Shown: piece after piece, positions 1 through 6,000 of the stretch
How the letters are laid out: every line of letters begins with the position of its first letter
Numbering within the stretch: the stretch's first letter is position 1
DNA from: a virus
Taxonomy: Duplodnaviria > Heunggongvirae > Uroviricota > Caudoviricetes
Direction: 5' to 3' (one strand)
Length of the DNA: 19,629 nucleotides
Virus record (IMG/VR): IMGVR_UViG_2551306674_000013
Program-made: the position numbers

Positions 1-3000
1 AAGTTTTCTGTAATCATCCTCGTTTGGTAACTGCCACTGGCTGACACTGAACCAGTGCGATGTCATGTTTTTCTTTCCTGTTTTATTAATTTTTCCCAGC
101 AGAAGACAAGAAAAAAGGTTCCGGTGTTATCGGAACCTTTCAGCAGTAAGCATACAATTATAGACGTTATAACCATAACATATTTTTTTGTGCGCACACA
201 ACCCTTTCAGGTAGTACAACTTCAGGATCCATATCCAACCTTACTCCCTGCAGAGTCAGAGCTCCTTCCAGAAATGCTTCAGACGCCTTCAGGGATGTCC
301 GTACACTAAGATGACTACGGTCTATCGCCTCAGCAATTGCACGCGTTGAGAGGCCGCCTATAAAACGTAACCCCAGGATCAGCAAATCATCGTACGGGCA
401 AACCATACTCATATGCGCGATGCAGGTATCAATCACCGCTCCGTCCTCGTCAGAGCAACCGGGTTTGCCACTGTCGGTTACGTCCCGGGAAGTAACCGAC
501 ATTGAGGGCCAGTCAACCATTGAACAGTATTCCTCGCTCGCCGCCCATCGCCCCCACCGCTCCAGAACAAGTTGCATATCTCTACGCATAACGCTGGCCT
601 CTACGTTTTGCTACTTACCGTTCATCTTTCATTTTGAGGTTAGAAAGATGTTTAAGCCGCTGGCAATACGCTTTCCAGTAAGCCTCAGAGTGCATCGGGT
701 GCTCGATGTCGCTATACAGCCATACACAGTCGTCTCGCTGAGTTACCGGCGGTGGCGCTAACACATCTCGAGTGGCCTGCGTTAGTGCTCTTTTGAAGAA
801 AAAAGCCTCCCCTAAGGGCTGGTAGTCTCTGTTGAATGCTTCCCAAGCCCCCTCAGCTGTTTTGCGGATACCGTAAGGCATACATTGGCGGAATATCTTT
901 GACATCGTCGTATCCTCATTTAGTTATTTGCTAATTTTTTCAAGTTAATTTCCGGGTGGCAGTTAGGTGGCACTCAAATAGCTATCTGCCACCTCCTGAA
1001 ACGCACACCACGTAAGGTGCCGGGCTATTTGGGTGGCGGGTGGCAGATAGTTTTAGTTCTATATACATAAGAGATCGCATAATACATAAAATATAAGTTC
1101 TCGCGTATATAGTTTTAAATTCTATTGCCACCTGCCACCTTTTCACCGCTTCCAATTGATTTGATTGATCTTTACCTGGTGGCAGTTAGTCGTTTATCTG
1201 CCACCTTACTGCCACCTTTTTACAATCCAGATTGCAAAATTTCGCAATTTTTATATATTTCACGCAATTCTTCGTTGCTGAAATCGGTATTTTTTACAAG
1301 TAACCACATGCGAACAGTCATGCCGTCCACTTTTAGTTTCACTGCTTCACGTTTTGTTTTTTCTCGCAATAGCTTTGTTATGTGCTTCTGGTTAATTTCT
1401 ACATCCATTCCTGCTTCTGCCAGTATTGCGTTAACAATTTGTTGATAAGTCATTGCTGGCACAGGCGGATTATCCAGGATTTCAATAAGAGCAGCCTCCA
1501 CATCGCTCTTATTGCTTTCAATCATCAGAAGGCGTTCTTTCGTCTCGGGGGCGCGCTGCCAGTTAAAGCGAGACAGGTCAACGCCCATCAGATACCAGTA
1601 CACCTGGGCGATAAAGTCGCTGTCGCTTAGCGCACCGTACAGGCTGGCGTAATGCTCTTCAGTTGCGGCGAAGTCAGGGCCACCAAGCACAGCGATACGT
1701 CTGTCTTCCTCTGGCAGCGCCAGCGCATCAAAGTGGTTGGTGTAGAACAGAAAGCCAGTGTATATATCCATCGTTTTTTTGCTGCCATATTTGCGGTTCA
1801 CTTCAAACCGTGGTTCTGTCAGTACATCGCGGATCTTATCGTTCACCTCATACCGCTTATCGTTTTCGCGCACCTCGTCAATGGTGCATAGAAGCGTATT
1901 GTACAGATAGTCATGGAACTGGTTATCGCACAGGATCTTCATGCGAGTACGAGCACAGTTCCACGGACCAAGTGCGCGCTCCATTAACTGGCTGACCCAT
2001 CCTCTGCCCGTACCATGTGCGGTAGCCACATGCAGAATAGAAATCGGGCATCGACGCTCCGGACGCTGAACCATCCATCCCAGACGGGCGATGAAAAACT
2101 CGCGCTGCCAGGCATCAGGTACCAGATACGCCATATGATTAAGGAACGTGGACACCTTACTTGTATCCGCTGTACGTGGATGCTCAGGCATATAAAATTC
2201 GTTTATCTCAAACCGCCCGTCGAAACGCTCGATAATACGTCCCGCACCGGGCTTATAGCCTGTCGTCTCAGCAATCTTCTTATGCCGATGCTCTATCCAC
2301 CGTTTGGTTGCGGGAATTGGTTGCCCTTTCCCTTCTGGCGGGAACTGGTAAGGCGCCATCAGGTTTTTGAACGACTTCATATCCATCATGCACTGATATG
2401 GCGGTCGGCTAAGATCACATACCTGGTCACCCTCGATGACGTAGATAAAGCGTTCCAGAAAATGAGCTGTCATATCTGTATTAATATCGGTAAATTCAGG
2501 CTTATCGCCATCTTCAGCCACTGTCAAATCTTCGAAGTCTGCCACGCGGTAGCCGTATGCATCCAGCCAGTCGGCATCAGTAAGCCCCGCATCGGTGTTG
2601 TGCATGCTTTTAAAATGTCCCTGTTCAAATCCCCCCGTCCCTTTTGGGAAATACTTAATGGATGTTTCGCTGCAACCGTTGCTGTATTCTGACTCATCCC
2701 GAAACGGTTTCAGATTGCGGGAACCATCAGAGCTGACTGACAGAGTCCACCCGTTCGCGTCAAGCCAGTCGGCGACATCATCTGTCGCGGAAGGATCAAC
2801 ACAGGAAAGGTCACGCTGACGTCCCGCACCTGCGGTATAGCTGTCTTTCACGGGTAAGTTATCCGCTAGACGCTGCCACAGGCTTTCGAGCTGTTCAGAT
2901 GTAATTTTCAGAGGTTCGCCGGGCAAACCGCAGTCCCACTGAATACGTTCGCCTGCCGGATGGGTACCACAAGCCACAAACTGCTGGCCCTTAGCGAGCA

Positions 3001-6000
3001 GCTCTATTTGTTTGTTTTCGCCTTCCAGGCGGTGACCACGTTTACGGTAGTCGCCATCAACAGCAATCAGGTATAGGCATTTATGACTGTCAGCCCGCCA
3101 GCGACGTGGCGGAAGTTCCCCCAGGCATGACAGGATAATATTGCGTACGATCTCCTGCATCCCGGCGTCATTGATATCGCAGTCCAGAGCCACCACCCCG
3201 TCGCCAGTACGAACGCAAATACCGTAATCGGGTTCGTTCGACCACCGGGCAAAATCGTTTTCCGTAACAACATAGTTAGCCCAGTCGGGGATACCAACAA
3301 CCTTACGTTGGCCATTGTAGCGACTGGGAGTTTTGCCGAAATTATGAGACAGCTTGCTATTAGGCGACAGTTCTGCACAGGGATTGGACACCACAGGTAA
3401 AAGCCTGTCTGTCATCCCCAACACCAGATCGAAGTGGAACCACTCATCGGGCGTAGCTCCCCATGGTTTGTTATCAGACATGGGTTACGCCTTTTGTCTA
3501 GCTGTCACTTCCTGAAAAAGCTTTTCTATCGCACGTACTGTAGAAAAGCGAGGGTCAGAATGAACCCCGGTGAGAAGCCGACTAATAGAAGACTGCTTCA
3601 CGCCTGCAATTTCGGCAATTTGGTTTTGGGTATACCCTGAATCAATCAAGCTTTTGACCATCTCTTGTGGTGTTAGTCCGGACATATTTAAGTCTCCACT
3701 TTCGTCTATAGCGCAAATTTATACGAAAACGGATTATTCAGCAATACAGCAATTCTATGTCATCCTGGATTAAAATATCCGATAACGCATAATCACCGTC
3801 CCTGTATACAACATGGATGAATCCAAATGATTGATACTACCGATATCCTTTCTCAAAACATCAAGTACCTGATGGACAAAGCCAAGATAAGCTCGATAAC
3901 TGAGCTGGCACGTCGGTTACAGCTGAACCAACCAACGCTACACAGGCTGGTATCAGGAGAGGTGAAAGATCCGAAATACGCAACGTTAAAGCAGATCGCC
4001 GACTACTTCCACGTGTCACCAATAGACCTGGCAGAAAGGAGCCTTCAAGAAATGGAGAAAGAGGACGCGACAGGTATAAAAACGTATATTTCTCTTAGGT
4101 TTAATAAAGTACCTGTTTTGGGAAACACTCAGCTAGGCGTAGGAGGACTTTGGAGCGACACCCAATATTCAGTAGGTAGCAGTGATGGTTTCATATACTG
4201 GCCGACAAAGGATGAAGATGCATACGCCCTGAAATGTGTTGGTGATTCAATGATGCCTAGAATCAAAGAGGGTGAGTTCGTAATCGTCGAACCCAACCAC
4301 GACTACACTCCTGGTGATGAAGTACTTGTGGTTACCCAGGACGGTGAGGTCATGGTTAAAACCTTCTTGTTCGAACGCGATGGCCTGTTCCATCTAATGT
4401 CTGTAAATGAAGATCATCCACCAGTCAGAGTACCACGCGAAAACATTGAAAAAATCCATTACGTGGCGGGGATCGCCAAATCCGCGCTACGCATGTACTA
4501 ACCTTTACAGTCTGATAACTTACTTCTGATCAAACCGCTCTCCACAAGGGCGGTTTTCTTATTTGCAAAATAATTCATTTTCGTATTGACACAAAATCCC
4601 ATAACGCATATAAATACGATATCGCATAATTAATGCGTTTTTTAATACCAGCTCTTTAACAAACTGAACCGCGTGACAGGTAAGCCGCAGTACTCCTGGC
4701 AAAATGAAATGGCACCCGATGGGATCGAGGTAAGCGCCGAGTCCGTATGCGTACGGTAAGCGTAGAGGACAACACCGCGACGAACTGATAAGTCACGCAA
4801 GTTGAAACGCCCCGACGATGGGGCGCTTAGTTCCTTTAACTCTGGGTGGCCGGAAAGGTACCCATGCTTAAAGAAATTACTGGTTGTAAGGATCGTAATC
4901 CGTGATTGCCTTCCCCGGATTTTCATCTTCAGCAGGCAGTCTGGCCTCTAAAGCATTTCGGTTGAACAGATAGGAAGCCCTACAGTGCGAACAAACCATA
5001 TTAACGGCTCGCCCAAGGCCTGGCTTAATAACCAGACCTTCCGCTTGCAATATAGATTTTCTCTTTTGCTCGTAGCAATTGGGACAAATATAAACCGGAG
5101 ATTGGTCAGTATCTGCAGAAAGCTTGCTGCGATAGACCAGAGTACCCCGCATAGGCTGGTAAAGTTCATAGCTCGCCGCTTCAGCGGCCCAGTTCTCTTG
5201 CTTTACTTTCTCATTTTCCAGTTCAACAATTTTCTCCTTAGCCGCAATCAGCAGCTCCTGAAGCGACATTTGCTGCATCTGAACATCCATTAGCTTATCG
5301 AGTAAGGTGTGCGTCTTCTCTTTAACTGCATAGTCGACAGTCAGATTCTGAATCTCTCTTGCTGCTCCAACCGCGCCTTTAATTGCTCCTCCCACGCCGG
5401 ATAACGATTCAGTTATCCGGGAAAGAATTCCTTTTTCTTCAGACATATCTAATCTCTCTCAAACTGTAGGGGTGAAGAGATATTAGACGATTTCTCACTG
5501 TAGGGGTACAAGGAGAACCACCTCGCCTGATGTGGTTAAAAGCAGGCACTCGATGATATCCATGTAATTGCTGTGTGTAGTCTTTGCCCGCCGCAAATGA
5601 CGGGCTTTTTTATGTCTGAAAGCGCACTCGCAACAGCGCGCTCCCCGATATGAAAAAAGGAATACAACCGATGAAACCTGAACACCTCTATCGACTGACG
5701 GGGCGCGATGTTCTCCGTTATCGCCGTAAAAACTTCGATTTGATGACCGGTCTGGCCGTTGCCACTGCGCTCGGTCTGATCATCACTTTCATTCTCCTTG
5801 TAGCGAGGACCACAGTATGAGTTTAGAAACCAGTCTCGAACTTAATAATCAACTTCTGGCACAACATAATGCGCTGCTTGAACGTCTTATCCGCACAATG
5901 GCATCAGGTATTGTTATGCATCCTGACACGATTTCACGAGTGCAGGAATGTCGGGATACAGCAACTGAAACTGAAAATATGTCAGCGGCAATGACACTGG

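Follow-up and report, generated by a model that had tools for sequence, protein, structure and literature searches.

Introduction

Phage NrS-1 encodes the described replication protein closest to the one studied here, gp28, a primase-polymerase with a superfamily 3 (SF3) helicase in its C-terminal region (CTR; PDB 6k9c, 6k9e and 6lrb; N300, PDB 6a9w). In the part of the structural report drawn on here, Lys453 of its P-loop holds bound phosphate in the crystal and is named the "catalytic lysine", and the protein hydrolyses all four dNTPs and ATP. The substitutions K525A (in the hairpin), R555A and R556A lower the dCTPase activity 3.8- to 15.4-fold, and unwinding is lost in these three mutants and in one further mutant, N526A being wild-type-like (PMC7102993). 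We report here a relative of gp28, a 753-residue primase-helicase and probable origin initiator, encoded by a Caudoviricetes sequence of 19,629 nucleotides (IMG/VR record IMGVR_UViG_2551306674_000013; this whole stretch is called the window). In this protein the lysine of the P-loop is replaced by an arginine, and the same replacement is found in the great majority of its nearest relatives. The gene is an ordinary member of its clade, whereas the clade is probably a variant, so far without a description, of a family of motors that is well known.

The lysine of the Walker A motif is treated as the defining and immutable residue of P-loop NTPases, and its replacement by arginine serves as the standard control that binds nucleotide without hydrolysing it. 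A natural precedent for its loss is Kti12 of Eurotiomycetes, in which the P-loop lysine is replaced throughout the lineage (K14L) with no loss of ATPase activity or of function in vivo (PMC7363723); Kti12, however, belongs to an unrelated kinase-like family, carries a leucine rather than an arginine and is not a ring motor. For an arginine-type P-loop in DUF5906, D5 or NrS-1-like helicases we found no description in the literature searched, the coverage of which was incomplete, and the arginine-type clade is probably new. The papers on IEE and AgaPP concern unrelated helicase types, and that on PICMI uses DUF5906 merely as a marker.

Two other kinds of described proteins are related to parts of the window protein. 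The replication protein ORF904 of the archaeal plasmid pRN1 (PDB 1ro2 and 3m1m) shares its PrimPol type. The poxvirus D5/E5 proteins, African swine fever virus (ASFV) C962R and SaPI5 Pri-Rep are D5-type SF3 primase-helicases, but they have other primase modules and C-terminal domains and are only 10-14% identical to it.

An arginine in place of the Walker A lysine

We investigated the presence of a P-loop in the C-terminal half of the protein. A preceding inspection, hereafter the sequence-only reading, had noted an AEP (archaeo-eukaryotic primase)-like DxD motif, VVALDCDIND, no GxxxxGK[ST], and GTGRG as the only P-loop-like stretch, without stating that the gene lies on the minus strand. These observations were correct. 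A regular-expression search over all 753 residues found neither [AG]xxxxGK[STG] nor [AG]xxxxG[KR]x, so that no canonical P-loop had been overlooked, the DxD motif was located at residues 96-105, and the stretch in question, HVATAHGTGRGWVS (residues 484-497), aligned to NrS-1's Walker A motif.

The sole phmmer match among PDB sequences was the NrS-1 CTR (6k9c, E = 1.7e-7), with "HGTGRGW" opposite "QGTGKGL". HHalign, using a profile of 110 relatives, gave the same register against NrS-1 with a probability of 99.5% and an E-value of 2.9e-22; the overall identity between the two proteins is only ~16-23%. Residue by residue, in the HMMER and the HHalign alignments, R493 (codon AGA, nucleotides 2003-2005) stands opposite K453 of the NrS-1 motif 447-GKQGTGKG-454, and G494 takes the place of the Ser/Thr. 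The loop reads T487-A-H-G-T-G-R493-G494 and, unlike that of NrS-1, also lacks the first Walker A glycine. In the AlphaFold2 model, the GTGRG stretch forms the loop joining strand 481-485 to the helix that starts at R493, with the geometry of a P-loop. As aligned and modelled, this stretch is a true P-loop.

The conservation of GTGRG in homologues, which the sequence-only reading had proposed to check, was then determined. A HMMER search with residues 335-753 against 1.84 billion cluster representatives gave 7,639 matches at E ≤ 1e-3, of which 275 had E ≤ 1e-30; all counts out of 150 given below refer to the best 150 of these representatives (50%-identity clusters). The column of the P-loop cation holds arginine in 144 of them and lysine in 6. 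In the first database search, GTGRGW was present in every DUF5906-type homologue, down to 37% identity (Avibacterium, Limnobaculum). All six arginine codons are used at this position in 34 sequences, i.e. the window and 33 other loci (CGT 11, CGC 10, AGG 5, AGA 3, CGG 3, CGA 2). A degenerate DNA pattern for [HQ]GTGRGW-x9-GxWN was searched in GTDB species genomes and in IMG/VR, and matched 32 of the former and 41 prophage-sized contigs of the latter; the genomes comprise Enterobacterales, Pasteurellales, other Gammaproteobacteria, several Alphaproteobacteria and one planctomycete, Blastopirellula. The same pattern with a lysine codon gave no match in IMG/VR.

Because GTGRG does not vary among the DUF5906-type homologues and 144 of the 150 representatives have it, the missing lysine is not due to chance or sequencing noise. 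The predominance of arginine, its persistence down to 37% identity, the use of six codons and the arginine-only pattern in IMG/VR together support, at the level of sequence comparison, that arginine is the selected and ancient state of a large clade and not a lesion of the window gene. As read from the isolated cyanophage Microcystis phage Mel-JY33 (locus L076, 364-2847), which encodes QQGTGRGT and a Walker B motif "FVHEL", the variant extends past Proteobacteria; this phage and the vB_EcoM-606R2 group are viable phages with the arginine type. DUF5906 was matched by all 50 arginine-type members scanned. A canonical GxxGxGK[ST] is found in Chi gp2, RDJL3 and HMSP1-Susan. A crude neighbour-joining tree of 130 domains gave no clean split between lysine and arginine types, and the three lysine-type lineages are each ~35% identical to the arginine types and no closer among themselves; neither a single lysine-to-arginine event nor reversals are claimed from this tree.

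Other residues of the active site

The remaining catalytic positions are strongly conserved. G492 is found in 150/150 representatives, the Walker B glutamate E536 in 148 and the sensor 1 asparagine N582 in 145. The arginine-finger motif is kept at R595 (149/150), D593 (143/150) and R594 (140/150), and the β-hairpin at K564 (148/150) and N562 (139/150). The window protein retains E536, N582, K564, R594 and R595 as equivalents of the NrS-1 residues, only the lysine being changed. In these alignments the change specific to the arginine clade is that of lysine to arginine, and at least 144 clusters defined at 50% identity hold the arginine under clear purifying selection with the other catalytic residues retained.

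Two further positions depart from the textbook motifs. The position following the cation, where Ser/Thr is usual, is a glycine (G494) in 140/150, as it is in NrS-1. At Walker B position 535 the clade shows relaxed conservation (E 59, D 31, H 25, P 11, A 7, G 6 and N 6), the six lysine-type neighbours having Asp in five cases and Asn in one. Neither feature is an argument for inactivity, because NrS-1, an active (d)NTPase, shows both (GKG and NE). Near the site, W495 is present in 115 of the 144 arginine types versus one of the six lysine types, and C532 in 112 of 144 versus one of six; Y615 and F463 likewise track the replacement. With six lysine-type comparators, these differences are suggestive of a pocket that co-varied with the change to arginine.

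Domain organization of the protein

Pfam profiles matched the protein at residues 75-185 (Prim-Pol, 31.4 bits, cutoff 22.8) and 488-595 (DUF5906, PF19263, 51.4 bits, cutoff 27.6), and PHROG 1156, "DNA primase", matched it with E = 3e-84; an NCBIfam scan of the same protein returned nothing meaningful. The N-terminal domain is an AEP PrimPol of the pRN1 ORF904 type (PF09250): its profile score exceeds the threshold and it has the AEP fold. Asp100 and Asp102 of its DxD motif I are kept in at least 90% of 110 sequences. The AlphaFold2 model of residues 335-753, built from 129 sequences, has a pLDDT of 96.6 and a pTM of 0.91 and shows a complete SF3 fold, which can be aligned, along its whole length, to residues 305-718 of the NrS-1 CTR; the collar and the AAA+ alpha/beta fold resemble those of the NrS-1 CTR, D5 and E1. 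The tail that follows is laid out as helix-helix-strand-helix-helix-hairpin-helix, winged-helix-like, with a pLDDT of at least 87. In outline, the protein joins a pRN1-type PrimPol to a D5/NrS-1-type SF3 helicase and ends in a winged-helix-like tail. Of the families with which the sequence-only reading had proposed a comparison, the D5 type was thus recovered, through DUF5906 and the NrS-1 fold, and P4 alpha and VirE were not. Membership of a P4 alpha, VirE or Toprim type was rejected, no Toprim, VirE, D5_N or zinc-ribbon Pfam match being obtained at E ≤ 1.

Between the PrimPol domain and the collar lies a small β-rich domain (pLDDT 73-92), with disordered linkers at residues 219-223 and 313-326 on either side. 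In 94 of 120 homologues this domain carries a CHCC motif, CPFEDGH...CLHASC, which resembles the UL52/PrimPol type. The window protein reads instead KPFRDESEY...SMHNTD and, with all four ligands replaced, has no accessory zinc finger or PriCT priming module. The ligands are also gone in a stable sub-lineage (sequences P0001, P0021, P0022, P0024, P0045 and P0050), and most other members of the arginine clade have PriCT-2 in place of the zinc finger. In NrS-1, as stated in the part of the report used here, priming works without a zinc finger (PMC8718748).

A putative iteron origin beside the gene

Directly downstream of the stop codon of the primase-helicase gene is a cluster of ten GGTGGCAG iterons. 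Their order is + + − / + +, then the AT-rich core, then − − / + − −, which makes a dyad. Nine of the ten copies of GGTGGCA in the window are located in the cluster; 2.5 copies per window are expected by chance, and none of 200 shuffles reached ten. Related loci have iterons of their own at the same position. In 42 of 55, the 450 bp that follow the gene on its downstream side contain some 8-mer at least five times (median 7), whereas in the 450 nt at the end of the gene itself, taken as a control, this was the case in none of the 55 (median 2, maximum 3). Which word is repeated differs by lineage (GGTAACAG in Serratia, GGTTGCAG, GGTGACAG, GGTGTCAG, AGGTGACG and others) and is GGTnnCAG-like.

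The locus thus has the features of an iteron-type origin, i.e. a cluster of short sites, an AT-rich segment, an adjoining initiator gene and a site that varies with the initiator. The region is probably the replication origin and, since relatives hold lineage-specific iterons at the same position, the gene is probably the origin initiator of the phage. A parallel is offered by pRN1, for which the consulted part of the report gives 166 bp downstream of orf904 as essential (PMC4234260). A scan for promoters and terminators around the gene gave results at background level. The origin with its adjoining gene could provide a usable minimal replicon for the phage group of the window.

Exchange of modules between related loci

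A sibling from E. coli (P0045; GCA_012461805.1, locus L080, 3001-5500, compared with 880-3481 of the window) is 99% identical to the window protein over residues 1-328. Right after "FEDLTVAEDGDK" it diverges into a VapE-type NTPase with a lysine P-loop, and the place of the iterons is taken there by about eleven copies of another one, AGGTTGAGTA. Therefore, helicase, tail and putative origin are exchanged as one cassette, and an arginine-type cassette can stand in for a lysine-type one. Since a change of the tail goes along with a change of the iterons, the tail would be the part that binds DNA and reads the iterons. The VapE siblings P0045 and P0062 (PF05272) are like the window in the PrimPol N-terminus (up to 99% identity), in the genome slot and in having downstream iterons, but their C-terminal NTPase is unrelated in sequence, with the lysine P-loop GCGKS (GKNKS in P0045). 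The Walker A motif of P0045 is itself unusual, SQQGKNKS versus GPQGCGKS.

Among 50 proteins scanned, the arginine-type domain is fused to Prim-Pol/PriCT-2 primases in 31-33, to RepB in three, to a BT4734-like primase in one and to Toprim/Zn-ribbon in one. Fusion to several unrelated kinds of primase is what would be expected of a working helicase partner.

Possible functions of the arginine-type site

The reading that we favour, with moderate confidence, is that the protein is a functional arginine-type NTPase and helicase that starts replication at the iteron origin beside its gene, and is the self-contained initiator of the phage. The tail would read the GGTGGCAG iterons, and on their dyad-symmetric arrays two rings would form head to head and melt the AT-rich core. 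The ATPase core is predicted to bind and hydrolyse (d)NTP, R493 giving the phosphate-contacting cation in place of the lysine, while the main-chain anion hole G490-G494, the catalytic E536, the sensor N582 and the trans fingers R594/R595 would act as in NrS-1. The PrimPol domain would then prime for the family A polymerase of the phage.

Several points weigh against this reading. Engineered proteins with arginine for the Walker A lysine as a rule still bind nucleotide but no longer hydrolyse it; in RecA K72R nucleotide is bound and ATP is not hydrolysed, and in RadA K108R the ATPase is abolished (PMC4786428). The missing Mg-coordinating Ser/Thr (G494) and the relaxed Walker B Asp could mean an altered or weak catalysis, and the phage encodes a separate SNF2-family helicase. 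The kept Glu, Asn and Arg fingers could equally serve a nucleotide-dependent assembly of the ring without turnover.

The leading alternative is a nucleotide switch, which we consider less likely, though clearly ahead of the others. The arginine-type site would bind NTP for hexamer assembly, origin melting and positioning of the primase, with very slow hydrolysis or none, and the fork would be unwound by the host DnaB or by the SNF2-family helicase of the phage. It agrees with the binding without hydrolysis of the engineered mutants, with the missing or relaxed Mg ligands (G494; variable position 535) and with the occurrence of an SNF2-family helicase, a single-stranded DNA-binding protein (SSB), a nuclease and a PolA in the same phage. 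Such accessory genes are, however, also annotated near the lysine-type NrS-1 and Chi gp2, and are thus not a compensation specific to the arginine type. A site that only binds nucleotide would be expected to relax its catalytic Glu, sensor 1 Asn and Arg fingers, whereas in the more than 140 clusters compared here (≤50% identity) these are near-invariant, and the lysine of the DNA-translocating hairpin is kept as well.

An altered chemistry, i.e. another ligand or specificity (for example dNTP only, phosphate or pyrophosphate, or another anion) in place of a standard ATP motor, is improbable. In its favour, NrS-1 already takes all four dNTPs plus ATP, and the pocket of the arginine clade is remodelled (W495, C532, H489) with relaxed Mg ligands; against it, the remainder of the site is standard SF3. 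The least probable explanation is a decayed pseudo-ATPase kept as a scaffold or origin-binding domain, to which the absence of a canonical Walker A motif and the degeneration of the zinc finger in the window lineage could point, and against which stand an invariant P-loop, the arginine of which is written with six codons, the conserved active site, the very confident model of a complete SF3 fold and intact copies of the gene in 45 of its 48 E. coli carriers. Of the "inactivated or divergent NTPase" proposed in the sequence-only reading, divergence is supported by the conserved arginine and catalytic residues, and inactivation is not supported.

Returning to the preferred reading of a functional NTPase, its extension to the whole [IV][SA]xxHGTGRGW clade, as fully competent NTP-driven SF3 ring motors without the Walker A lysine, with a pocket that evolved along with the change (W495, C532) and a looser ligation of Mg, is put forward tentatively, with somewhat less than even confidence. 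If the arginine types hydrolyse NTP, they would show a way of building a ring motor on arginine, a second natural solution to the handling of phosphate. If they do not, they would be natural replication initiators that use nucleotide binding alone. Annotation by the GK[ST] motif will wrongly label arginine-type proteins as inactive.

Phage context and neighbouring genes

The window belongs to a temperate phage of E. coli, and two thirds of it align with vB_EcoM-606R2 at 96% identity; the 753-residue protein is likewise 96% identical to a protein of that phage. Of 5426 complete E. coli genomes, 48 carry the gene, in every case on the chromosome. Within the rightward early operon it comes next after the cro-like gene, and the Q gene follows it (Table 1); in lambdoid phages, the replication genes occupy the slot between the cro-like gene and Q. 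The leftward arm encodes a DUF2800/PD-(D/E)XK nuclease, an Enc34-type SSB, a family A polymerase, a VRR-NUC-like endonuclease and the SNF2-family helicase. NrS-1 differs from the window phage in having no separate family A polymerase; genes annotated as SSB, RecB-like, helicase and endonuclease lie on its other arm.

Table 1 Features of the window, with coordinates, strand and the evidence on which each rests
Feature	Coordinates	Strand	Evidence
Primase-helicase/initiator gene, 753 aa, intact open reading frame (ORF)	1220..3481	minus	ORF list and translation
PrimPol (AEP) domain, residues 1-216	2834..3481	minus	
DxD motif D100/D102 within VVALDCDIND, residues 96-105	3167-3196	minus	
Small β-rich domain, residues 225-312, former CHCC zinc finger	2546..2809	minus	homologue alignment, AlphaFold2
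Head/collar region before the ATPase, residues 335-472, equivalent to NrS-1 "Head", D5_N-like	2066..2479	minus	AlphaFold2 model alignment
SF3 (AAA+) ATPase core, residues 476-640	1562..2056	minus	DUF5906; phmmer to 6k9c; HHalign
Arginine-type P-loop HVATAHGTGRGWVS, residues 484-497	1991..2032	minus	HMMER, HHalign, AlphaFold2, homologue alignment
Walker B LLCTIDEV (D535, E536)	1871..1894	minus	E536 kept in 148/150
DNA-binding β-hairpin N562-R563-K564, equivalent to the NrS-1 "KN" hairpin (K525)	1790..1798	minus	alignment to NrS-1
Motif C/sensor 1 FLFYTNH (N582)	1733..1753	minus	N582 in 145/150
Arginine fingers D593-R594-R595, equivalent to NrS-1 R555/R556	1697..1705	minus	alignment to NrS-1
C-terminal tail, residues 645-753, proposed iteron reader	1223..1549	minus	AlphaFold2 secondary structure
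Ten GGTGGCAG iterons of the putative replication origin; 7 match exactly and 3 have one mismatch	955..1216	.	GGTGGCA count, shuffles
Proposed melting site, a core of 76% AT between the inverted arrays of iterons	1050..1125	.	
cro-like helix-turn-helix (HTH) gene, immediately upstream, same operon	3485..3685	minus	Pfam HTH_3; ON470579 annotation
cI-like repressor gene, divergent	3827..4501	plus	Pfam Peptidase_S24 and HTH
Q gene, after the primase-helicase gene	167..589	minus	
NUMOD4/HNH endonuclease gene, between the phrog_6784 and DUF2800 nuclease genes	6722-7240	plus	
208-aa ORF between the AntA antirepressor and polymerase genes	10357..10983	minus	
TIR-domain gene (Pfam CAP12/Pycsar TIR), between the polymerase and VRR-NUC-like nuclease genes	13111-13872	plus	Pfam, PADLOC

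Three genes outside the replication locus were also noted. The 208-residue ORF next to the polymerase gene has no Pfam, PHROG or PADLOC match and may be a moron; around it, at 10001-11000, the local GC content dips to 0.39 versus ~0.49. The TIR-domain gene matches the PADLOC candidate defence system PDC-S35 with E = 7e-109. In vB_EcoM-606R2 the phrog_6784 and DUF2800 genes are adjacent and the HNH gene is absent, so that in the window this gene looks like a homing-endonuclease insertion.

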